From: a virus
Lineage: Duplodnaviria > Heunggongvirae > Uroviricota > Caudoviricetes
IMG/VR virus record: IMGVR_UViG_3300045988_154803
Reading direction: 5' to 3' (one strand)
DNA length: 48,828 bases
Below are positions 956-25,426 of this stretch, in pieces. The position numbers and the translations under genes are program-made. The stretch's first letter is position 1; each line of letters opens with the position of its first letter. The notes below the pieces were generated by a model. It was not told the origin of the DNA and did no database searches. It saw only the letters and a list, made by a program, of their open reading frames with translations.

Positions 956-1031
956 TGGTGGCCCCTACCGGATTTGAACCGATGACCGTGCGATTATGAG
1001 TCGCCTGCTCTAACCACTGAGCTAAGGGGCC
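956..1031 (-). tRNA. tRNA with CAU anticodon, ileX/ileY-like (probable tRNA-Ile2 reading AUA after lysidine modification; tRNA-Met not excluded)
   Basis: 76-nt cloverleaf read by hand: acceptor GGCCCCU/AGGGGCC, D arm GCUC-AGUGGUU-AGAGC, anticodon loop CUCAUAA, T arm AUCGG-UUCAAAU-CCGGU, 3' CCA; 5' half matches E. coli ileX as recalled. Confidence 0.85.
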
Positions 1032-4619: not shown

Positions 4620-5274
4620 TTACCCATACCCACGGGTTAGATAGCCAGTTCTCTTGCCCGTAAATACCGCGCCAGATATCACCAAAACCAACACGATAAA
4701 CAGCTTCCGGCGGCGTAATCTTGTACGTTGCCGGAGATGCGCCTTCCGCTTTGGCATCTGCCTCGCTCATGTCATGCAGCCGCTCCACACGCACGTCGGT
4801 AATTTCCAGCAAAATTCGCGATGCCCATCTCGGCATGTGAATTGACGGGGTCCAGCCCTCAGATGGCTTGCTACTATCTGAGTAATCAGCCTTGTAATCA
4901 CACAGTTCAGAAGCCAGAGAGACACCATCTTTGATTTCCTGAATAACATCGTCATCCAGCCAAAAAGCGTTGAATGTCTCACGTACCCATATGCGATCAC
5001 CAACGTTACCGAACGGGCATAAGCCATGCTCAGGTGCATCCATAACGTGGGTATAGACACCATTGCGTTTCTTTGTCGGTTTACTGATAACCAGGCAGTT
5101 ATCGGCCCTGACATTTTTTACAGGTCGACGAGTCTGCGTCTTCCTGCCTTCGAGGATGGCTCGGACCATCTCATCATTAAAAATCATGCCGCGCTCTTTC
5201 ACCTTGCTCACTTCAACTCCTCCCGACGACGTTCCTGAAGCTCTAGCATTGCAGCTCGGAAATCCTGCCACCAT
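4582..5274 (-). CDS. Hypothetical phage protein (possible ASCH/PUA-like fold); start probably internal at MIFNDEM
   Basis: Motif MIFNDEMVRAILEGRKTQTRR recalled from ASCH-like phage proteins. Confidence 0.45.
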   Translation of the reverse strand: MVAGFPSCNARASGTSSGGVEVSKVKERGMIFNDEMVRAILEGRKTQTRRPVKNVRADNCLVISKPTKKRNGVYTHVMDAPEHGLCPFGNVGDRIWVRETFNAFWLDDDVIQEIKDGVSLASELCDYKADYSDSSKPSEGWTPSIHMPRWASRILLEITDVRVERLHDMSEADAKAEGASPATYKITPPEAVYRVGFGDIWRGIYGQENWLSNPWVWVIEFKRIQGANSE

Positions 5275-5573
5275 TCCTCATCTGCAACGGGGGTGTTTCG
5301 CTCCAGCACCTTGTCCGCATCAGCGATCAGGTTTGCCAGACTATTGTCTGAAATCTTCGTTACCGGAGTCGTTGGTTGCTCAACCTGCCCGATAGGTTTT
5401 ATCGTGCTCAAAAGGAGGCGACGGCGGGAAAGTGGTGCCCCACAACGACGGCCATCTTCCTTGCGATATGTTTCTTTCGGACCAACACACCAGGTTGTCG
5501 GCGTTTCACGCAACTTCACTCTTTTCTCACCATCATTGGTAATGATTATTCCGGTATGGGTTTTGATGCTCAT
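5208..5573 (-). CDS. Hypothetical protein
   Basis: 121-aa ORF; overlaps neighbour in a different frame. Confidence 0.35.
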   Translation of the reverse strand: MSIKTHTGIIITNDGEKRVKLRETPTTWCVGPKETYRKEDGRRCGAPLSRRRLLLSTIKPIGQVEQPTTPVTKISDNSLANLIADADKVLERNTPVADEEWWQDFRAAMLELQERRREELK

Positions 5574-5872
5574 GCCACAGCCCCTCTCAACGGCTTAACT
5601 TTGGCTAATAAGGTGTTAAACAACATGGAGTTAGGATTCATGCCAAATGGCAATTCCGGTTTAGCGGAGTAGTACAGGCAACCATTTATTTTCCTGGTTG
5701 TTATCTGTCCTTCGGCAACCATGCTTCTCAGTCTGCAACGCATAGAGTTCTGCGACACACCAATGTGCTCCGCGATTACGTCCACTTTTGAACATGGGTG
5801 ATCGGTCAGGAAATTAATCACATCTTGGGGGTTAATAATTTTGCGTTTCATTGTCGAGGCGTCCTTATACAT
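5570..5872 (-). CDS. Small winged-helix-like DNA-binding protein (candidate regulator)
   Basis: 100 aa; helix-turn-helix-like VIAEHIGVSQNSMRCRLRSMVAEG; preceded by AT palindrome promoter. Confidence 0.4.
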   Translation of the reverse strand: MYKDASTMKRKIINPQDVINFLTDHPCSKVDVIAEHIGVSQNSMRCRLRSMVAEGQITTRKINGCLYYSAKPELPFGMNPNSMLFNTLLAKVKPLRGAVA

Positions 5873-6996: not shown

Positions 6997-7112
6997 CAGA
7001 TTTCTCCGGTTTAACCAGGGCGGGTATCGCTCGGTTTCGGGTATAACCTTAGGAAATTTTTTCCCACCTGTAAAGCGCTTTTTATATAAATCTATAATTA
7101 TATATTTATAGA
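6997..7112 (-). promoter_or_regulatory. Conserved promoter/5' leader cassette, copy A
   Basis: Near-identical to 16461-16580 and 48667-48785; ends at the start codon with GGAG RBS; contains TATAATTATA palindrome. Confidence 0.6.
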
Positions 7113-7165
7113 TTTTCGATGTTACCGATGTCTACACACCATCAAAACAGCTCAAAATGACACTT

Positions 7166-7543
7166 TTACTCTCTTCGCTTTTTCAAATAGTCGACAACAT
7201 ACGCCCTGGCTTTTGCCAGCTTCCGGCGATACTGTCTGAGACTAAGAGAAAGGGCGTGGGCTTTATCAATATGCGGTGCATTTATGTCGAGGCCCCGAAT
7301 CTCCCACGCCCCGTATTCAATTCGGACAACCAGCGCCGCAGTCTCATCAACTACCGTGAGGGCCGTCACCGCTCCCTCGATACTGGTTTCCAGTGAGTCA
7401 TTTGGTGCGCCGCCCCCTCCGGTAAACTGGCAGCGCGTAACCATCATCATTTCTAACATCGACGCGAAACCGCTACGGGCGTTGCAGCCATTGCGCACCC
7501 ACAGCGCCCATAGCTCAAACAAGCTATCCAGATCGCGTCTCAC
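7166..7543 (-). CDS. Possible Q-like antiterminator (Phage_antitermQ-like)
   Basis: 125 aa; N-terminal LFELWALWV resembles LERWGAWA start of small Q-family proteins (recalled); sits immediately upstream of leader cassette A. Confidence 0.4.
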   Translation of the reverse strand: MRRDLDSLFELWALWVRNGCNARSGFASMLEMMMVTRCQFTGGGGAPNDSLETSIEGAVTALTVVDETAALVVRIEYGAWEIRGLDINAPHIDKAHALSLSLRQYRRKLAKARAYVVDYLKKRRE

Positions 7544-7546
7544 TGT

Positions 7547-7879
7547 TCAGATCTCCCGTATCGTGACGGGATAAAGCGCCTCTACCTGCTTTTTCTTCAT
7601 GATGTAGACGTCTGTTCGCACACCTTTAGTGTCGACACAATCAATCGTCCCATCGTCATAAAACACCATGAAATCAAGTTTATAAACGACACCACCTGGC
7701 AGATGAAAAGGCACCTGCATAAGAAACGTCACAACGCGGCCAGCTTTTCTCAGTAGCTTCAGTTCGCAGTAGTAATCAGCCTCTTTTTTGCTATCAAAAG
7801 AGATATCATCGACAACAGTTTTTTTATTGCCGTATTTGCTTTTCCTGGTCGCTGGTTTGCGAAAGCCGGTATATCTCAT
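7547..7879 (-). CDS. DUF1064 family protein (PD-(D/E)XK-like)
   Basis: SKYGNKKTVVDDISFDSKKEADYY signature typical of DUF1064. Confidence 0.6.
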   Translation of the reverse strand: MRYTGFRKPATRKSKYGNKKTVVDDISFDSKKEADYYCELKLLRKAGRVVTFLMQVPFHLPGGVVYKLDFMVFYDDGTIDCVDTKGVRTDVYIMKKKQVEALYPVTIREI

Positions 7880-8280
7880 TTGGTATCCCCTGGTACTTCA
7901 CCAAGACTAAGATCAAACCCAATTTCGTCTTTAACTGACTGCGGCAACAGCTCCCACGTCTGCGCACACAAAAATTCATCGGTGCCATAACGCTCAACAA
8001 AGCGAGCACAATTACTCAGGGGAGGGTGACGAACGGCAATATGCGGAGGCACGCGCCCACCACCAGGCACAACACCGCGATGATGTGGTGCGCACAACCC
8101 AAAGCTATGGAAGTGGCAATTCTCATCAACGCTGCCGTAATCAGGATCGTGATGTAGCTCCGTCCACAGCTCTGGATTATCAATTTCACGGCCATCAATA
8201 ATGCAAGCTATGCAACCCACGTGAGTGAGCACCGCTTGTATATAAAGTTTCTCTTTCTTCGTTGGTGTACGTCCGTTCAT
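7876..8280 (-). CDS. Cys/His-rich protein, possible zinc-binding HNH-like nuclease
   Basis: CIACIIDG ... HH ... DENCHFHSFGLCAPHH. Confidence 0.35.
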   Translation of the reverse strand: MNGRTPTKKEKLYIQAVLTHVGCIACIIDGREIDNPELWTELHHDPDYGSVDENCHFHSFGLCAPHHRGVVPGGGRVPPHIAVRHPPLSNCARFVERYGTDEFLCAQTWELLPQSVKDEIGFDLSLGEVPGDTK

Positions 8281-12129: not shown

Positions 12130-12153
12130 ATAAAAAAGCCCCCGAAGGGGCCT
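12130..12153. terminator. Hairpin terminator (U-run on minus strand, A-run on plus)
   Basis: gcccccgaaggggc stem-loop flanked by A6 on plus strand. Confidence 0.5.
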
Positions 12154-12725
12154 AATCGCTACTTGCTGCTAATGTTTATCGTCACATTCAGAGCGTTATC
12201 AGTAATCTTCCAACCCTCCCCATGTGGCGTAAACAAAGCTCCAGTAACAACGATAAAAATACACATACAGTATTTTTTCATTGTATGGCCCTTACAGGCC
12301 GTTTCACGGCATCCCCACCGACGAAAACAACGCGAGAGCAAGCACGGCTGCTTGTGCTTGCATGTACGGCAACGGAGAATCCTCCCCTAAAGTCGGTGCC
12401 CGGGTGCGAATCGGCGGGAAGGTCCACAGGTATTTTACGATTATTTTAAGATTAGTAATAGGAAAGAAATTAAACGAAAAAACTCGTTTATTTTCACAAA
12501 ATCAGTAACCTACCCACAATCTGTGAGTTTGCAGGCACAACAAGAACCACAATTTTTTGAAGCATAATAGTGGACTATTATTACCTTTTGGGTAAAATTA
12601 ACTTGCTGCTTGTGCTTGCGTGGTTGTTTATACAACAACGTAATGCTGAAAGGACCGCGAATCCGATCAGCACGAAAGAACCGTCCTCAATAGGGCGGTT
12701 TTTTTGTTTCTGCCTACCAATAAAC

Positions 12726-12773: not shown

Positions 12774-12873
12774 TGCGCCATTGGTGGACACTTTCCGAGC
12801 CGTAGCAAAATCTACGGCCGGGATTGGAACCCCGATAATCATCATGGCGCATACCGCGTTAGCGGTTTTTTTA
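12774..12873 (+). ncRNA. Candidate small RNA (~100 nt) ending at intrinsic terminator
   Basis: Candidate promoter TTGTCT-N17-TATTGA; internal hairpin ccgtagcaaaatctacgg; terminator ccgc-gtta-gcgg + T7 at 12854-12872. Confidence 0.3.
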
Positions 12874-13037
12874 TGCGTAAAGCACTGCTACACCCAAATT
12901 ATGGTGGGGCGTGCGGGGGAGTCGTAAGACTCGCCGGATTCCATGGTGACCGGTAGTTCCAACCCTGTACGTCTCACCACCCAATGATTGGAACCAGACG
13001 GTGGTGAGTATCCTTAACCTTTAAGGGAACTATCACC

Positions 13038-16923: not shown

Positions 16924-17276
16924 TACTTGCTCTCCAGTGTGTTCAGATGTGCTGCAAACTCATCCTCAGCTATACGCACCAGTTTTTCATAAAACCGCTT
17001 ATCGTTACTTTTGTCTCCTGCACAAAGAACGATGGCCCGGCGAATCGGATCGAACGCATAAAAGGCTCTTATCGGACGGCCAGAAAACTGAACGCGAAGC
17101 TCTTTCATATTTTTGTACCGAGAACCTTTTACGGTATCGGCATATGGCCTGGGTAACTCAGGTCCGTAAACCTGTAGCTTTTTCAAATCAGCCAAAACCT
17201 TTTCCTGAAGAGCGTCTTCTTGCTCATTTAGCCAGTCGTCAAATCGCTGGCTAAAAAGTACCGTCCACATGCTCAA
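16923..17276 (-). CDS. higB: HigB-like RelE/ParE-superfamily toxin (Gp49-like)
   Basis: 117 aa; toxin-first arrangement with HTH antitoxin; sequence pattern recalled from Gp49/HigB family. Confidence 0.65.
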   Translation of the reverse strand: MSMWTVLFSQRFDDWLNEQEDALQEKVLADLKKLQVYGPELPRPYADTVKGSRYKNMKELRVQFSGRPIRAFYAFDPIRRAIVLCAGDKSNDKRFYEKLVRIAEDEFAAHLNTLESK

Positions 17277-17325
17277 TCCTATAACCTGTAGTTTATATCA
17301 CTAACTATATAACCTGTGAGTTATA
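17277..17325. promoter_or_regulatory. Direct repeats TATAACCTGT upstream of higB (candidate autoregulatory operator)
   Basis: cctataacctgtag ... tatataacctgtgag. Confidence 0.45.
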
Positions 17326-18732: not shown

Positions 18733-19713
18733 TTAATGTTGGAGTGATTTCCAGGTCTTTCTTAGCCTGTTATAACGCTGCTCAACGAGGGATCGTAAAT
18801 ATGCAAGGTCAGCACCTGGATACATGCCATCAGCAAATTCCTGGCTAACCTCTCTAGTGATTTGATGACGAAGTTCGGCCTCTCCCTTTTCCTGAACAAG
18901 ACGCGCAGCTCTCTCCGCTGCTTTCTGTTTTGCCTTTATCTCTCTGGCCGTCTTCCTCTGACGCCATACATTCTCCATCTGCTCCTGAATAACAATACGC
19001 TTATAATCAGCCTCCGTTATCGCTTTTTTAAGCCGTTCGCTATTCTTCGCATTGAAGTAATTAAGTTTCTGGCTAACCGCACGTCTCCATGCTTGTTCAG
19101 TAATACCAACGATTTCCAGCAGTTGATCACGAATCTCTATTTTCGCTGGCCAATACTGTTTATTCACCCGATCCCAGCGACGTTCATAATCAATAAAACC
19201 TAACGCTTTCAGTTGCGACAACGCCCTTGTACAGCGCGTTATAGACTTGTTCCCAGCTTCGGATACGGTAGACAGGCCGCAAAAATCAGCCAACGCCTCA
19301 GCACTGGCCAGAACCCGCTTAGAAATGATGTTTACATGGTGCAAAATCGCAGCAATCACAGCATTAATCGCCCGACGACGATGCTCGTTTATCCGGCGTT
19401 TCCGCTCTGACGGTTGATTAACGTAGAACGCAACCTCACACGTAAGATCACGACCATTAATGCGCTGTAAAGCATCAGATAACACCAGCGGCAGCTTGTG
19501 CGTATGGTGCTTTGGAGGCTGGAACTCCGGCGACAAATTACAAACGTAAGCTGAACGTAGAGACGGCATTGGTCTATCCATATGTTCGCTCTTGCGTCCA
19601 CGGAAAACCAACGTATAATGGGAGTTGTCGAGGCGCCCATGGATTGTTTTTGTTGGTTTTCCGTGGATGTCGCAAGAAGCCCGCAGATTTATCTGCGGGC
19701 TTTTTGTTTCCAT
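18733..19713 (-). CDS. repA: IncFII-type RepA replication initiator (RepA1-like); true start possibly internal
   Basis: RRRAINAVI...GLSTVSEAGNKSITRCTRALSQLKALGFIDY aligns by eye to R1/R100 RepA1 block RRRAIDALL...GLATESAAGKLSITRATRALTFLSELGLITY (recalled). Confidence 0.8.
   Translation of the reverse strand: METKSPQINLRASCDIHGKPTKTIHGRLDNSHYTLVFRGRKSEHMDRPMPSLRSAYVCNLSPEFQPPKHHTHKLPLVLSDALQRINGRDLTCEVAFYVNQPSERKRRINEHRRRAINAVIAAILHHVNIISKRVLASAEALADFCGLSTVSEAGNKSITRCTRALSQLKALGFIDYERRWDRVNKQYWPAKIEIRDQLLEIVGITEQAWRRAVSQKLNYFNAKNSERLKKAITEADYKRIVIQEQMENVWRQRKTAREIKAKQKAAERAARLVQEKGEAELRHQITREVSQEFADGMYPGADLAYLRSLVEQRYNRLRKTWKSLQH
19679..19710 (+). terminator. Plus-strand intrinsic terminator antisense to repA 5' region (candidate CopA-like RNA 3' end)
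   Basis: gcccgcag-atttat-ctgcgggc followed by TTTTTGTTT. Confidence 0.4.
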
Positions 19714-19894
19714 ATCTGGTCATTTTCCAACCAGACACCCACAATCATAACCACGTTACGTGGTTTTCAGAGAACTCTACCACAACACTTTCGGTCATGC
19801 ACGAAGTCTCTCACTGATCGAACGATAATCCACCAGTAAAAGGATCTAAATTGGATCTCGTTTTGCGAGCATCATACTACTGGCCTAACTCCAG

Positions 19895-20449
19895 TCAATG
19901 ATTCCCAGCCGGAAACCTGCGGTAAAGCGTGGATAAGGTAACATCGAAGATAATCGCTATCCGCTTACGTGAAACACCATTCGCAATAAGCCTTCCGATC
20001 TGTTCCCATTGCTCTGGTGCCAATTTTGAGCGGCGTCCTCCTATCCTGCCGTTAGCCCTTGCCACCGCCAATCCTGCACGCGTTCTTTCAATCATATTTT
20101 CCCGCTCCATCTCTGCGACTGCACTCAGCATCGTGTAGGCAAAGCGGCCAATTGAAGTGCTAATTTTTATCCCTTCCGTAATCGAAATAAACTCAATGTT
20201 GTTTGATAAAAAATGGTTAAGTAAATCAACAAGATGAATCAGAGAACGCCCCATTCGGTCCAGCTTCCAGACAATAACCGTATCGCCCGGCCGTAACACC
20301 TTAAGTAGCTTATCAAGTCCTGGTCGTTTTGATTTAGCACCGGATATTTTATCTTCAAAAATCTGGTCACATCCTGAACTCCTGAGCGCCTCCAGTTGTA
20401 ATTCCAAATTCTGGTCAAAAGTTGACACCCTCGCATAACCATATTGCAT
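19895..20449 (-). CDS. Gin/Hin/Cin/Pin-family serine DNA invertase
   Basis: 184 aa; YARVSTFDQ catalytic Ser motif, WKLDRMGRS, C-terminal HTH; alignable along full length to Mu Gin as recalled. Confidence 0.95.
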   Translation of the reverse strand: MQYGYARVSTFDQNLELQLEALRSSGCDQIFEDKISGAKSKRPGLDKLLKVLRPGDTVIVWKLDRMGRSLIHLVDLLNHFLSNNIEFISITEGIKISTSIGRFAYTMLSAVAEMERENMIERTRAGLAVARANGRIGGRRSKLAPEQWEQIGRLIANGVSRKRIAIIFDVTLSTLYRRFPAGNH

Positions 20450-20513
20450 ACTTTCTAAACCGCGATTGTTGCTAAAAGCGGAAAAAAATATCGTTCAGAC
20501 GACACAGAGGCAA

Positions 20514-20539
20514 TTCGCAAAAACCTCGGTTTACAGGAA
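20514..20539. repeat. Left inversion crossover site (gix/hix-like, inverted orientation)
   Basis: Reverse complement reads TTCCTGTAAACCGAGGTTTTTGCGAA; inverted repeat of right site. Confidence 0.8.
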
Positions 20540-20563
20540 ACGGTAAACCGAGCCGGGAACGCC

Positions 20564-21400
20564 GTGCAAAAAAATGGCGATACCTTGTCCGGTGGACTTA
20601 CTTTTGAAAACGACTCAATCCTTGCCTGGATTCGAAATACTGACTGGGCAAAGATTGGATTTAAAAATGATGCCGACAGCGATACTGATTCATATATGTG
20701 GTTTGAAACAGGTGACAACGGCAATGAATATTTCAAATGGAGAAGCCGCCAGAGTACCACAACAAAAGACCTGATGACGCTGAAATGGGATGCACTAAAT
20801 ATTCTTGTTAATGCCGTCATTAATGGCTGTCTTGGAGTTGGTACGACGAATGCACTAGGTGGTAGCTCTATTGTCCTTGGTGATAATGATACCGGATTTA
20901 AACAGAATGGAGACGGTATTCTTGATGTTTATGCTAACAGTCAGCGTGTATTCCGTTTTCAGAATGGAGTGGCTATTGCTTTTAAAAATATTCAGGTAGG
21001 GGATAGTAAAAAGTTCTCGCTATCCAGCTCTAACACATCCACGAAGAATATTACCTTTAATTTATGGGGTGCTTCCAACCGTCCAGTGGTTGCAGAGTTA
21101 GGCGATGAGTCCGGATGGCATTTCTATAGCCAGCGAAATACAGATAACTCGGTAATATTTGCTGTTAATGGTCAGATGCAACCCAGCAACTGGGGGAATT
21201 TTGATTCCCGCTATGTGAAAGATGTTCGCCTGGGTACGCGAGTTGTTCAATTGATGGCGCGAGGTGGTCGTTATGAAAAAGCCGGACACACGATTACCGG
21301 ATTAAGAATCATTGGTGAAGTAGATGGCGATGATGAAGCCATCTTCAGGCCGATACAAAAGTACATCAATGGCACATGGTATAACGTTGCGCAGGTGTAA
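20564..21400 (+). CDS. Alternative tail-fibre C-terminal variable domain (promoterless; fused to constant N-terminus after inversion)
   Basis: Frame open from crossover site; C-terminus ...RPIQKYINGTWYNVAQV parallels expressed fibre C-terminus ...RPIQYCINGTWYNAGSI. Confidence 0.75.
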   Translation: MQKNGDTLSGGLTFENDSILAWIRNTDWAKIGFKNDADSDTDSYMWFETGDNGNEYFKWRSRQSTTTKDLMTLKWDALNILVNAVINGCLGVGTTNALGGSSIVLGDNDTGFKQNGDGILDVYANSQRVFRFQNGVAIAFKNIQVGDSKKFSLSSSNTSTKNITFNLWGASNRPVVAELGDESGWHFYSQRNTDNSVIFAVNGQMQPSNWGNFDSRYVKDVRLGTRVVQLMARGGRYEKAGHTITGLRIIGEVDGDDEAIFRPIQKYINGTWYNVAQV

Positions 21401-21403
21401 GTT

Positions 21404-21931
21404 ATGCAGCATTTAAAGAACATTAAGTCAGGTAATCCAAAAACAAAAGAACAATATCAGCTAACAAAGAATTTTGATGTTATCTGGTTATGGTCCGAAG
21501 ACGGTAAAAACTGGTATGAGGAAGTAAATAACTTTCAGGACGACACCATAAAGATTGTATACGACGAAAATAATATTATTGCCGCCATCACCAAAGATGC
21601 CTCCACGCTTAACCCTGAAGGTTTTAGCGTTGTCGAGGTTCCTGATATTACCGCCAACCGACGTGCTGATGACTCAGGTAAATGGATGTTTAAGGATGGT
21701 GCTGTGATTAAGCGGATTTATACGGCTGACGAACAGCAACAACAGGCCGAATCACAAAAGGCCGCGTTGATTTCCGAAGCTGAATCAGTCATCCAGCCGC
21801 TGGAACGCGCTGTCAGGCTGAATATGGCAACAGACGAGGAACGCACACGACTGGAAGCATGGGAACGCTACAGCGTTCTGGTCAGCCGTGTGGATACGGC
21901 AAATCCTGAATGGCCACAAAAGCCTGAATAA
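21404..21931 (+). CDS. Tail fibre assembly chaperone (alternative orientation)
   Basis: Paralog of 21960-22493 product ([22 protein letters not shown] vs [22 protein letters not shown]). Confidence 0.75.
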
Positions 21932-21959
21932 AAATTAAGGCCCGATAGCGGGCCTTGTT

Positions 21960-22493
21960 TCATTCTGGTTGTTCTGGAAACGTTACTGGCAGGCTGGAGG
22001 TGTCTGTGGATTCGACCTTCTGCGCATAGAGCATCCACTCGGTTAATTTTTGTTTATTCTCGTTGGAAATGATACCCAGCCGTAGCTGTGAGTCCCATAG
22101 CTGGGTTTTATCCCTGACGAGCTGTAGCAGGCTTTGCTTTTCATTTTCCGCTTGTTGCCTCTGCTCTTCCTCGGTATAAGTTCGCTTTATCACTACGCCA
22201 TCTTTGAACAACCATTTCCCCGAAATATCAGCCCGGCGATTTGCTGTAATATCAGGTAATTCAACGACGCTTGCGCCTTCCGGATTAATTGCTGAAACAT
22301 CCTTTTCAATACAAATAATAACGCCGTTATGGTCATAGACCATTTTCAAAGTGTCTGGCTGGAAATTCTTTTGTTCCTCATACCAGTTTTTTCCATCATC
22401 TGAATAAAGCCATTTGATGTTAAATTGCTTTGTTAGCTGGTATTGCTCTTTTGTTTTAGGGTTGCCAGCAGTAATGTTTTTTAAGTGCATCAT
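21960..22493 (-). CDS. Tail fibre assembly chaperone (currently expressed orientation)
   Basis: Immediately downstream of tail fibre gene; Tfa-like sequence. Confidence 0.8.
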   Translation of the reverse strand: MMHLKNITAGNPKTKEQYQLTKQFNIKWLYSDDGKNWYEEQKNFQPDTLKMVYDHNGVIICIEKDVSAINPEGASVVELPDITANRRADISGKWLFKDGVVIKRTYTEEEQRQQAENEKQSLLQLVRDKTQLWDSQLRLGIISNENKQKLTEWMLYAQKVESTDTSSLPVTFPEQPE

Positions 22494-22495
22494 CG

Positions 22496-24814
22496 TTAAA
22501 TACTCCCCGCGTTATACCACGTCCCATTAATGCAATACTGAATTGGCCTTGCCTGTGTTGTATCAATTAATTCATCACGGTTTCCGTTAACTGAACCCGT
22601 AACGACATAACCTGACCTGTCAGACCAGCCGGGGCCATTCCATGTCTGAACAGATGACAGACCGCCAAGGCGAATACCTGTAATAAACCTTGAGTTACAT
22701 TCTGCCTGCGTATATGCACCAACATCTCCCGCAGAGGGTTTGCGGGTTGTGGTGTAAAACTCTGACCAGTCAGCTTCAAAGCCATAACCATCACGCGCTG
22801 AACGATAAAAGATTCCGCCATTTCTGTAATTCACGCGGAACTGTGCAGCAGGGCAGCTCCCCGTATTCATATTGAAGTGGAGGATTAATGTCGATGCGCC
22901 ACCAATATTTGCGTTATAGACCCCGCTATTCCAGTTCCAGCCAACAGCTTTATCATTTCCGACAGTGCTTCCTGTTTGCCCTAAAGCAAATGCAGGTTGT
23001 TGATTTTTCGTGTTGTAGTCTCGTCGCCAGCCAGGAGCGTAAGCATCACCATGATTAATATAAGTGAATTGAGCGTTAGTAATTCCTCCACCGCTGGACG
23101 TGCTCGGCGTGGTAACGCGTATGGTCATTGCGCCGCGAGTGCCAATAACTTCCACCACAGCACCTGCAAGACAAATATTTCCGCAACCTGTATCTGTAAT
23201 GACCTTATTATTTGCATAAGCCCATGAGCCTTTGCACATCCAGTAAGGATGGTTAAATGCTCCCTGACTCTCCAGCCACGAAATAAATTGCGCGGTTGTC
23301 CAGACCTGACTATCGCCACCAATATCCAGCCATGCGCTATATGCGCGGCAGGCCCCAATATTTTTGGTGAAGGTATCTTTTCCCGGAATATCTGCGCCGT
23401 TCTGGTTTTTCTGTAATGCGCCAGAAGCCTGATTTACCGTTTCCTGTAAACCGAGGTATTCGATAACGGCAGCAACGGTCGATTTCGCAAGAATATCCCG
23501 CCCGACTTTTGTCAGGGTTGCCAGGCTGGCGACATCATTCCCCGTAAAATACGGAAACTTGTCTGCCGCAGTAGCAAGCCCGGCCAGCGCCGTCAGGGTG
23601 GCATCTTTCGGTTGCTTACCCGCAAGCGCGTTAGTCATGGTGGTCGCAAAATTCGGGTCGTTTCCCAGCGCCGCCGCTAACTCGTTCAGCGTATTCAGTG
23701 CGTCAGGTGACGAGTCCACGAGGGCAGCGATCGCAGCCATAACGAAAGCCGTGCTTGCGATTTGGGTATTATTCGTTCCCTGTCGCGCAGTTGGCGTTGT
23801 TGGCGTTCCGGTCAACGCAGGACTGTTTAAGGGCGCTTTCTTGTTCGTTTCATCCATTACCGCCTTGACCGCTTTCGATGTCGCGGCCAGTGTTTCAGAC
23901 GTGCTGTTGGTGGAACTACTGAGCTGAGTTATTCCCCTTACAGTCAGTGAAGCTACAGGCACATTTGTTATCTGCTCCCACGAATGCGTGTGATTGGACG
24001 GAGCCTTTCCGGCCGCAAGATCATACGCTGCCTTAACAGCCTTTGGTGTTGCTGCTAGCGTTTCAGACGTGCTGTTGGTGGCACTACTGAGCTGAACAAT
24101 CCCTTTTCGCGCTGTGGTAGCGTCCTGTGCGGTGTATTTGCCATTAGCCAGGTCATATGCTGCCTTAACAGCCTTAGGCGTCGCAGCAAGCGTTTCAGAC
24201 GAGCTATTGGTGGCGCTGCTAAGTTGAACAAAGCCTTTTGAGGTTAAAGTTGCATCAGGATGATTACGTGATTGTTCATGTTTCACAATGGCTTGCTTAA
24301 GCCGCTTTGCTGAAACAGCAAGGGAATCATCTGTACCGTCATCAATTTCTTGTTCATTGGCAAATCTTGCAACCCCAACAACAGTTTCGGTTGCGGGAGG
24401 ATTAATAAACTCAATATCACCAAATGTAATATTTTTAGTATCAAGAGTCTTGATTGCTATGTCACTTGATATTAAAGCAATAGTAGATGATGCTTTATTT
24501 ATTATTGCTTGTTCTTGCGAGTATACAGCAAACAACGTTCCCTTATTTGTATACAATCCTATTGTATGGACAACATACTCATCTTTACTATCATCCTTCG
24601 CCGTTACATGAATTGTATCAGGGGAAACAACTTTGCCACCTATTGTGGTAAGTCGTTTTATTTCGTTTGTTATATTTGTTTGTGAAGTTGACGTGACATA
24701 ATATCTACTACCTAAACCAACAGAAACAATCTCAACTTTATTTGTTCCTGTTTTGTTGGCATTAACCAGCTCCTGACGCCCGGCGTCAGTCATCGTAAAT
24801 AATAATTTACTCAC
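22496..24814 (-). CDS. Tail fibre protein (constant N-terminal ~450 aa outside, variable C-terminus inside invertible segment)
   Basis: 772 aa; repeated SSATNS(T/S)SETLAATPKAVKAAYD collar-like motifs; crossover site lies inside the ORF. Confidence 0.85.
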   Translation of the reverse strand: MSKLLFTMTDAGRQELVNANKTGTNKVEIVSVGLGSRYYVTSTSQTNITNEIKRLTTIGGKVVSPDTIHVTAKDDSKDEYVVHTIGLYTNKGTLFAVYSQEQAIINKASSTIALISSDIAIKTLDTKNITFGDIEFINPPATETVVGVARFANEQEIDDGTDDSLAVSAKRLKQAIVKHEQSRNHPDATLTSKGFVQLSSATNSSSETLAATPKAVKAAYDLANGKYTAQDATTARKGIVQLSSATNSTSETLAATPKAVKAAYDLAAGKAPSNHTHSWEQITNVPVASLTVRGITQLSSSTNSTSETLAATSKAVKAVMDETNKKAPLNSPALTGTPTTPTARQGTNNTQIASTAFVMAAIAALVDSSPDALNTLNELAAALGNDPNFATTMTNALAGKQPKDATLTALAGLATAADKFPYFTGNDVASLATLTKVGRDILAKSTVAAVIEYLGLQETVNQASGALQKNQNGADIPGKDTFTKNIGACRAYSAWLDIGGDSQVWTTAQFISWLESQGAFNHPYWMCKGSWAYANNKVITDTGCGNICLAGAVVEVIGTRGAMTIRVTTPSTSSGGGITNAQFTYINHGDAYAPGWRRDYNTKNQQPAFALGQTGSTVGNDKAVGWNWNSGVYNANIGGASTLILHFNMNTGSCPAAQFRVNYRNGGIFYRSARDGYGFEADWSEFYTTTRKPSAGDVGAYTQAECNSRFITGIRLGGLSSVQTWNGPGWSDRSGYVVTGSVNGNRDELIDTTQARPIQYCINGTWYNAGSI
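23441..23466. repeat. Right inversion crossover site (gix/hix-like)
   Basis: TTCCTGTAAACCGAGGTATTCGATAA, close to Mu gixL as recalled. Confidence 0.85.
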
Positions 24815-24844
24815 GCTTAATTCCTTGAATTAACAAATTGCGAA

Positions 24845-25426
24845 TTAGCACTCGCCAATTAATCGTACATAAGACACAGGCTGACAAGCACCAACAATAC
24901 CGACACCACCAGAAACATTGGCTGCTTGCGAAAATGTAAATAATGTTCTTGCCGACTTTGCGCTCTTGATACTTCTTAACGTATCTTCCAACATCTCTTT
25001 CGAAGGAACGGCACCATCAAAAGAGTTAATCGAAGCAACAATTGAGGCTGTATATGGTTCGCCAGGTGGTGATGTTTCAAACCATTCTGTTATGTTTACC
25101 TCTCCACCCAAGCTATTTACTACATCTTCAACCGCTGCCCTTGTACCCTTTATTCGCTTTGTTCGTATTATTGATTTAAAAACAGAACGCTTTAACGATA
25201 CAGGCCAACTATCCCTCCATGTATCAGCATTCCATTGCCAAGCTAAATGATCGAGAACAACTGAGTCCAGGTTATCAACAACGCTATATATTTCTGTCTT
25301 ATATATTAAATTGTTAATTGCTTGTAGTTCATCATCAATAGCTTTCGACATAGCTATCACGTTGGGATCTCTAGCTAAGTTAGGAGGTAAAACATCCAAC
25401 AAGCTAACATTAAAGATATCAGCCAT
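24845..25426 (-). CDS. Baseplate protein, P2 gpI-like
   Basis: Operon position between gpJ-like and tail fibre; 193 aa. Confidence 0.65.
   Translation of the reverse strand: MADIFNVSLLDVLPPNLARDPNVIAMSKAIDDELQAINNLIYKTEIYSVVDNLDSVVLDHLAWQWNADTWRDSWPVSLKRSVFKSIIRTKRIKGTRAAVEDVVNSLGGEVNITEWFETSPPGEPYTASIVASINSFDGAVPSKEMLEDTLRSIKSAKSARTLFTFSQAANVSGGVGIVGACQPVSYVRLIGEC

Follow-up and report, generated by a model that had tools for sequence, protein, structure and literature searches.

A probable invertible host-range switch of the Gin/Cin type on the tail fibre of a 48.8-kb phage-plasmid

Is the distal end of the tail fibre exchanged by DNA inversion in the tailed phage recorded as IMGVR_UViG_3300045988_154803? 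This IMG/VR record (Caudoviricetes) is 48,828 nucleotides long, and is denominated in its whole length the window. The question is raised by positions 19,895 to 24,814, where a serine DNA invertase gene lies beside a segment bounded by inverted repeats, one of which falls inside a tail fibre gene. A Gin-type invertible fibre switch had been proposed here by a sequence-only reading of the stretch, and the proposal is supported by an anatomy like that of phage Mu, 93.7% DNA identity to Mu, preservation of the reading frame upon inversion, and occurrence of both orientations among relatives. The region is very probably a functional invertible host-range switch acting on the tail fibre.

Recombination sites and anatomy of the segment

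The features making up the switch, one of which is an open reading frame (ORF) of 772 codons, are given below in order of position. Significance of Pfam matches is given as expectation value (E).

19895-20449, minus strand: serine DNA invertase gene, 184 amino acids (aa) (Pfam Resolvase, E = 2.6e-44; HTH_7, E = 2.9e-13)
20514-20539: invertase-proximal 26-bp site, equivalent of gixR (core TC at 20526-20527; 23/26 positions as in Mu gix)
20528-21400, plus strand: silent, promoterless alternative fibre end, 290 aa and stop, of the P2 gpH C-terminal type (Pfam Gp34_trimer; in frame from the crossover)
21404-21931, plus strand: silent tail-fibre assembly chaperone, 175 aa, of the Mu U type (Pfam Caudo_TAP, E = 8.4e-37; collinear with Mu U)
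21936-21957, both strands: bidirectional terminator hairpin separating the convergent chaperone genes (terminator-like matches on both strands)
21960-22493, minus strand: tail-fibre assembly chaperone in the expressed position, 177 aa, of the Mu U' type (Pfam Caudo_TAP, E = 3.3e-36; collinear with Mu U')
22496-24814, minus strand: tail fibre ORF, 772 aa (three Phage_fiber_2 repeats and gp37_C, Pfam)
22496-23452, minus strand: variable fibre end now joined to the constant part, aa 455-772 (318 aa), of the Mu S'v type (Pfam gp37_C; alignment to Mu)
23441-23466: 26-bp site inside the fibre gene, equivalent of gixL (core GA at 23453-23454; 24/26 positions as in Mu gix)
23455-24814, minus strand: constant N-terminal fibre part, aa 1-454 (three Pfam Phage_fiber_2 matches, E = 3.2e-58)

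The site at 20514-20539 reads TTCGCAAAAACCTCGGTTTACAGGAA, and the reverse complement of the site at 23441-23466 reads TTATCGAATACCTCGGTTTACAGGAA. The two are inverted relative to each other, are alike at 22 of 26 positions, and have in common a perfect stretch of 25 nt (20523-20547 vs 23457-23433). The sequence TTATCCAAAACCTCGGTTTACAGGAA is found at both ends of the Mu G segment (read from NC_000929). As in inversion systems of the Din type, each of the two inverted sites consists of two 12-bp half-sites around an identical 2-bp core. The layouts are TTCGCAAAAACC-TC-GGTTTACAGGAA and TTATCGAATACC-TC-GGTTTACAGGAA, both cores being TC as in Mu gix. An 18-mer site pattern, searched for with up to 3 mismatches in the 48.8-kb window and in 100 shuffled sequences, has exactly 2 matches in the window, on opposite strands and both at the two sites; the mean in shuffled sequence is 0.05 matches, and none of the 100 shuffles had two. 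Further gix-like sites, such as would mark a multi-inversion system like Min of p15B, were not found in the 48.8-kb window beyond these two. A repeat finder delimited the inverted repeat at 20520-20574 / 23406-23460. The invertase gene is separated by 64 bp from the nearest site, and codon 454 of the 772-aa fibre ORF contains the central dinucleotide of the other (23453-23454).

All of the elements named for this locus by the sequence-only reading are found where it had placed them. The invertase gene does lie beside a segment of about 2.9 kb (2,929 bp) with inverted 26-bp sites, which are two only, and the second site is evident on direct alignment. The likeness to Mu gix holds at 23/26 and 24/26 positions. 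The right site had been placed inside the 772-aa fibre ORF, leaving about 450 constant and 320 exchangeable residues, and the crossover codon is 454 and the tip 318 aa long.

As in the Mu G and P1 C segments, the fibre gene contains one of the sites, and two fibre ends are present, each with its own chaperone gene, in convergent pairs. Order and orientation of the parts are the same as in the Mu G segment (Sc, site, Sv, U, U'/S'v reversed, site, invertase), and Mu and D108 are alike in type. Over 2.1 kb (21350-23469), the window DNA is 93.7% identical to that of Mu U, U' and S'v. The TC core and 23-24 of the 26 site positions are common to the two, and the start of the invertase gene is located, in the window as in Mu, 64-67 bp beyond the distal site. 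When phage genomes were searched with the region by megablast, matches of 89-95% identity were obtained to the invertible segments of Mu, D108, P1 and P7. By alignment, the orientation in the window is that of the Mu G(-) state, where the constant part is joined to an S'-type end and the U'-type chaperone comes next. In its first 308 nt the silent fibre end is 90.9% identical to the start of Mu Sv, and beyond about 300 nt it is not Mu S. The silent tip (20540-21400) exhibits 97.7% DNA identity to the last 860 nt of P2 gene H. The constant part includes three direct repeats of 93 nt (23847-24239; 72-83% identity), which encode the three Phage_fiber_2 repeats. Fibres of relatives range in length from 716 to 792 aa, and differences reside partly in this repeat region.

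Inversion was simulated between the central dinucleotides (20526-23454, 2,929 bp). In the inverted form the fibre ORF stays open, and encodes 744 aa, resulting from the joining of the 454 constant codons to 290 codons of the plus strand starting at 20528. The inverted fibre stops at 21400, and the 175-aa chaperone gene starts 3 nt after the stop. The two fibre forms have an identical prefix of 461 aa. Both orientations are in frame (772-aa vs 744-aa fibre), and a chaperone gene directly follows each stop codon. As the inverted fibre reads in frame from 20528, the silent cassette begins at the crossover, and not at the GTG at 20564, from which a mechanical ORF of 278 aa is called (20564-21400, plus strand). 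The second fibre C-terminus that had been assigned to this latter interval is therefore present, with its start misplaced: it begins at 20528 and is 290 aa long. Similarly, the two assembly genes reported in the segment are there (Caudo_TAP), but had been called divergent, while they are convergent, with the 21936-21957 hairpin between them.

In the mechanism that may be envisaged, invertase dimers would bind the two inverted 26-bp sites, both sites would be cut at the central 2-bp core, and halves would be exchanged by subunit rotation, flipping the 2,929-bp segment (20526-23454). The constant 454 fibre codons would always be transcribed, as part of the late operon (baseplate J, protein I, fibre). 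These would be continued by the Mu S'-type tip (318 aa) and the U'-type chaperone in the orientation of the window, by the P2 H-type tip (290 aa) and the U-type chaperone in the inverted one. Having two alternative tips, a lysogen population would release two kinds of particles, recognising different lipopolysaccharide cores. Receptor specificities of Mu S' and P2 H differ. The likeness of the tips to Mu S' and P2 H suggests which hosts each may serve, and that host range may change with orientation.

Both orientations among relatives

The 6.8-kb region was compared with relatives fetched from databases. In the Yersinia phage vB_YpM_39 the flanks are collinear with the window (98.7% and 96.1% identity), and 21194-23460 aligns reversed at 98.5%. 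A reversed interior between flanks 97-99.9% identical to those of the window is featured also by pla2 of Escherichia sp. HH091_1A, by pRHB38-C13_5 and by the RHB21-E3-C02 plasmid. The orientation of the window itself is found in pEA15_3 and pESBL3215. In relatives, collinear and reversed alignments meet inside the sites.

Two junction queries of 600 nt, with the crossover at query position 300, were searched against PLSDB plasmids. The native junction is contiguous in 15 records (at least 96% coverage), 5 of which have at least 95% identity and 10 have 84-88%. Unbroken matches to the simulated inverted junction were given by 10 records (93-97% identity). Where a match was broken, it ended between query positions 309 and 329, right at the crossover or shortly beyond it. 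Across the lineage, either orientation is carried by relatives whose flanks are 96-99.9% identical. On this comparative evidence the segment appears to invert in the lineage, and the particular copy in the window presumably flips as well.

The invertase, its control and the alternatives

Like gin in Mu, the invertase gene shares the direction of transcription of the fibre gene and points away from the segment. The product aligns without gaps, at residues 2-181, to the Gin structures 3UJ3/4M6F (E = 2.5e-62; 3e-30 for gamma-delta resolvase). The protein is identical to Gin in 101 of 181 residues (55%), and DNA identity between the two genes is 56.5%; set against the 93.7% identity of the segment, these values place the invertase much farther from Mu than the DNA that it would flip. 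Of the catalytic residues, R7, S9 and R42 are seen in the alignment, together with F87 of the pocket, and R65 and R68 were read from the translation. The protein has the make-up of Din-type enzymes, serine recombinases of about 180-195 aa with a Ser9/10 nucleophile, conserved arginines and a C-terminal HTH_7 domain. Residues 141-182 align to Hin's DNA-binding domain, and the recognition-helix motif STLYR(R/Y)FPA is shared with Hin.

Among the matches listed, the closest phage invertases are those of Salmonella phage SJ46, which is P1-like (87.8% protein identity), and of Escherichia phage Eeyore (82.5%); the others, D108 included, are 56-61% identical. The gene is intact in all of the 8 relatives examined. 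The ratio of nonsynonymous to synonymous substitution rates (dN/dS) is 0.19 against SJ46 and 0.05-0.2 against six of seven closer relatives, and the invertase is, on these figures, under purifying selection. The SJ46 invertase (5001-5582) is a mosaic, similar to that of the window in residues 1 to about 145, and to Mu Gin in the DNA-binding domain and C-terminal tail. SJ46 is also 89% identical to the window at the outer half-site and in the DNA preceding the invertase gene, and for this reason invertase and half-site seem to move as one module.

Inversion would presumably need Fis, together with an enhancer within the 5' part of the gene; in Din-type systems this enhancer consists of a pair of Fis sites spaced about 47-48 bp. 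Residues of Hin proposed to contact Fis are Q151, R154 and L155, and K47, K/R48 and K/R51 in helix B face enhancer DNA (Johnson's laboratory, PMC3798978). All three Fis-contact residues are kept in the window invertase (Q150, R153, L154), as are two of the three basic helix-B residues (K47 and K50), Asp being found at position 46. The helix-E 'phenylalanine switch' of Hin, F104-F105-F106-H107-V-M109, locks the inactive dimer; inversion is abolished by F105A, activity is very weak in F106Y, and it is from substitutions at 105, 107 and 109 that Fis-independent activity has classically arisen (PMC4513852). The phenylalanine switch of Din-type systems is replaced by FAYTML in the window invertase, and the pocket F87 is kept.

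The first 400 nt from the site were scanned for an enhancer, as pairs of A/T-rich 15-mers fitting G-N13-C and located 44-50 bp apart, with Mu gin as control, and terminators were searched for by consensus. Two elements were noted close to the 5' end of the gene.

20343-20357, minus strand: GAAGATAAAATATCC, a candidate Fis-type site spanning +93 to +107 in the invertase gene (G-N13-C, A/T-rich centre)
20525-20552, minus strand: hairpin and adjoining T-run (stem of 10 bp, loop of 8 nt, then GTTTTTGCGA; by consensus terminator scan)

In a codon-wise alignment the candidate Fis-type site shares codons (E32-S36) with GAAGATAAATTAAGC in Mu gin. The inner half-site and the opening codons of the P2 H-type cassette together make up the hairpin, which is located just upstream of the invertase gene. 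Being present in this form in the current orientation only, it may act as an orientation-dependent insulating terminator.

Several points weigh against a functional switch of the Gin/Cin type. Evidence for both orientations comes from the records of relatives. A host invertase acting in trans, as Pin of e14, could in principle be the source of the differences in orientation among relatives. No pair of Fis-type sites about 47 bp apart was found by the G-N13-C scan in the 5' part of the invertase gene. A consensus promoter scan of 19700-25000 found none before the invertase gene, and fewer sites than in shuffled sequence; by eye, a weak TTGCCT-17-TATTTT alone is seen at this position. Asp is found at position 46, the equivalent of Hin residue 47, where Lys has been reported in 15 of 15 aligned invertases (PMC3798978). 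Lastly, the helix-E motif is F103-A104-Y105-T106-M107-L108, vs F-F-F-H-V-M in Gin and Hin.

It is possible, though unlikely, that the switch works and is controlled otherwise than Gin, Hin and Cin, being independent of Fis and enhancer or gated in some other way, with different regulatory residues in helix E. The change from FFFHVM to FAYTML fits this explanation, as substitutions at Hin 105/107/109 are classic for Fis-independence (PMC4513852), and so do the Asp at position 46, in the enhancer-contacting helix B, and the lack of a second Fis-type site in the scan. On the other side are the conservation of Q150, R153 and L154, as well as of K47 and K50, and the location of the one Fis-like site at the same codons as in Mu gin. 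Substitutions are also fewer at the beginning of the gene: in the window, SJ46 and Eeyore genes taken together, 15-22 per 45 nt were counted in the first 135 nt vs 21-60 in most later bins, which protein constraint could explain. The low density is no proof of an enhancer, because the region encodes also the most conserved part of the protein.

Both FAYTML and D46 are conserved in the SJ46 and Eeyore invertases. Since the motif is kept in these, and both orientations are common in the lineage, FAYTML is read as the mark of a functional sub-clade rather than of a dead enzyme, whose regulation may differ from that of textbook enzymes. With little confidence, it may be conjectured that the window invertase belongs, with SJ46 'Pin' and Eeyore, to a Din sub-clade not yet described, distinguished by FAYTML and by Asp in place of the helix-B Lys, perhaps having another tetramer gating or being free from Fis and enhancer, and in which the 20525-20552 hairpin perhaps makes read-through into the invertase gene depend on orientation.

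Alternatively, the switch could be frozen or decaying, and the orientations found in relatives be due to a host invertase in trans or to RecA recombination across the inverted repeats of about 25-55 bp. In Hin, the equivalent of A104 is inactive and that of Y105 very weak (PMC4513852); the Asp that replaces the conserved Lys at position 46, the lack of a clear enhancer or promoter in the scans of the invertase region, and IS3 insertions in or next to the fibre genes of two relatives point the same way. This explanation is nonetheless very unlikely, given that the invertase is intact in 8/8 relatives, and FAYTML is kept in SJ46 and Eeyore at 82-88% protein identity with a dN/dS of 0.19, unlike in a dead gene. 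Moreover, both orientations are common among relatives (about 15 vs 10 records), breakpoints are at the sites, and both fusion frames are open. That the inverted repeats are not recombination sites at all, and reflect chance likeness or the shared 5' ends of duplicated fibre cassettes, is suggested by a likeness running about 8-30 nt beyond the 26-bp sites into both cassettes, but has next to no probability and is already refuted, as far as sequence comparison goes, by the chance expectation of 0.05, by the 23-24/26 match to Mu gix with half-sites and core in place, by the invertase gene 64 bp away from one site, and by the mapping to the sites of the rearrangement breakpoints of relatives. 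A functional switch of the Gin/Cin type thus remains the favoured explanation.

The carrier element and its place among known systems

Records closest to the whole window are of three sorts: the Yersinia phages vB_YpM_39, 41 and 44, isolated on Y. pestis EV76 and recorded as circles of 49 kb; incomplete records of Escherichia phages; and many plasmids of about 48 kb from E. coli, E. albertii, E. fergusonii and Klebsiella, those of E. coli having a RepA of the IncFII type. A gene encoding an IncFII-type RepA (18733-19713, minus strand; Pfam IncFII_repA, E = 4.2e-44) directly adjoins the invertase gene, and the element is for this reason regarded as a phage kept as a plasmid. Baseplate genes adjoining the fibre gene are similar to P2 J/I (Pfam). 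By these matches, the carrier is a phage-plasmid of E. coli and related bacteria, 48.8 kb long, which combines a P2-like baseplate with a RepA of the IncFII type. Membership in the pSLy3 phage-plasmid group was considered and rejected, as pSLy3 belongs to the SSU5 supergroup. Yersinia phage HQ103 was likewise discarded as a relative, being a 32-kb P2-like phage in which the H-type tip is the sole shared part.

In design and in most of its sequence, the switch compares as an ordinary copy of the textbook Mu/P1 type, and is of a well known kind. Departures from the classic examples, as judged by the same comparisons, are the phage-plasmid carrier, the 454-aa constant part, the P2 H-type tip and the divergent invertase clade. 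Relative to Mu, the invertase is 55% identical to Gin and has another helix-E motif. The constant fibre part includes 454 aa and three repeats, whereas the boundary in Mu is, by annotation, about 170 codons into S. The tip of the Mu G(+) state is replaced by one of the P2 H type, and the element is a plasmid-like phage with a P2-like baseplate, while Mu is a transposable phage. A switch of the same kind resides in plasmid-maintained phages in P1 and P7 (C segment, Cin, cix) and in the D6-like phage-plasmids. About half of the query aligns to P1 and P7 DNA, at 89-94% identity. However, P1, P7 and D6-like elements span 90-100 kb, vs 48.8 kb in the window, and the window differs from them in replicon (IncFII-type RepA), constant fibre part and invertase clade. 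The tail-fibre inversion region is a shared mosaic module, as noted in D6-like phage-plasmids (PMC6799933).

The invertases nearest to that of the window, SJ46 'pin' and Eeyore, feature the same FAYTML and D46. SJ46 differs, however, in the Gin-like DNA-binding domain and tail, in a site with an AA core, and in the other cassettes. P2 resembles the window in genes H/G, the silent tip being 97.7% identical to the C-terminal 860 nt of H, and in the J/I-like baseplate neighbours, but its fibre end is fixed, without invertase or second cassette. Hin/hix of Salmonella, Pin of e14 and Min of p15B have an enzyme of the same family and the same 26-bp site design. In contrast to the window, where a coding end is flipped, Hin flips a promoter and hin is inside its own segment; Min has six sites, the window two.

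Literature searches under the names of the nearest accessions and phages yielded no description of the switch of this lineage. The phage records that come closest (vB_YpM_39/41/44) annotate the region only as 'hin: DNA-invertase', fibre and chaperone genes being 'hypothetical protein', and these genes could now be properly annotated. Lysates of the 48-kb phage-plasmid family should hold two particle types, with Mu S'-type and P2 H-type tips, respectively; this matters when host range is assayed on E. coli, Shigella and Yersinia pestis, and for assembly artefacts in the region. The locus illustrates mosaicism of modules, bringing together, beside a plasmid replication gene, a segment of the Mu type, a tip of the P2 type and a divergent invertase. 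No new biological question is opened by it, and the sole mechanistic interest resides in the naturally variant regulatory helix of the invertase.

Insertions of the IS3 family are present in two relatives, pEA15_3 (7044-8272) and CP099184.1 (5225-6453), where they interrupt the tail protein I gene in one and the variable fibre end in the other. Because fibre and tail genes are hit, some members of the plasmid family are probably phage-defective.

The leader region of RepA hosts a perfect 16-nt hairpin (19597-19612 with 19652-19667) and, on the opposite strand, a terminator-like hairpin followed by a T-run (19673-19706). The hairpins at 19597-19706 may provide CopA-like antisense control of RepA; no Rfam match at gathering score was found in this leader region. 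The Rfam scan of the whole window gave no match within the switch region, and matches above gathering score to ryfA (12132-12427, minus strand), isrK (12799-12872, plus strand) and C4 antisense RNA (12897-12984, plus strand). C4 is the immunity antisense RNA of P1 and P7. Given the C4 match at 12897-12984, the phage-plasmid seems to have a P1-like immunity region of the immI type. A tRNA-Met (CAT) gene is found at 956-1031 (minus strand), and is annotated in vB_YpM_39 too. A HigB2-type toxin gene and a small neighbouring ORF are annotated in vB_YpM_39 (16971-17318) and vB_YpM_44 (124-471), the equivalent in the window being at about 16.6-17.3 kb; in these relatives they may be a toxin-antitoxin pair for plasmid maintenance.

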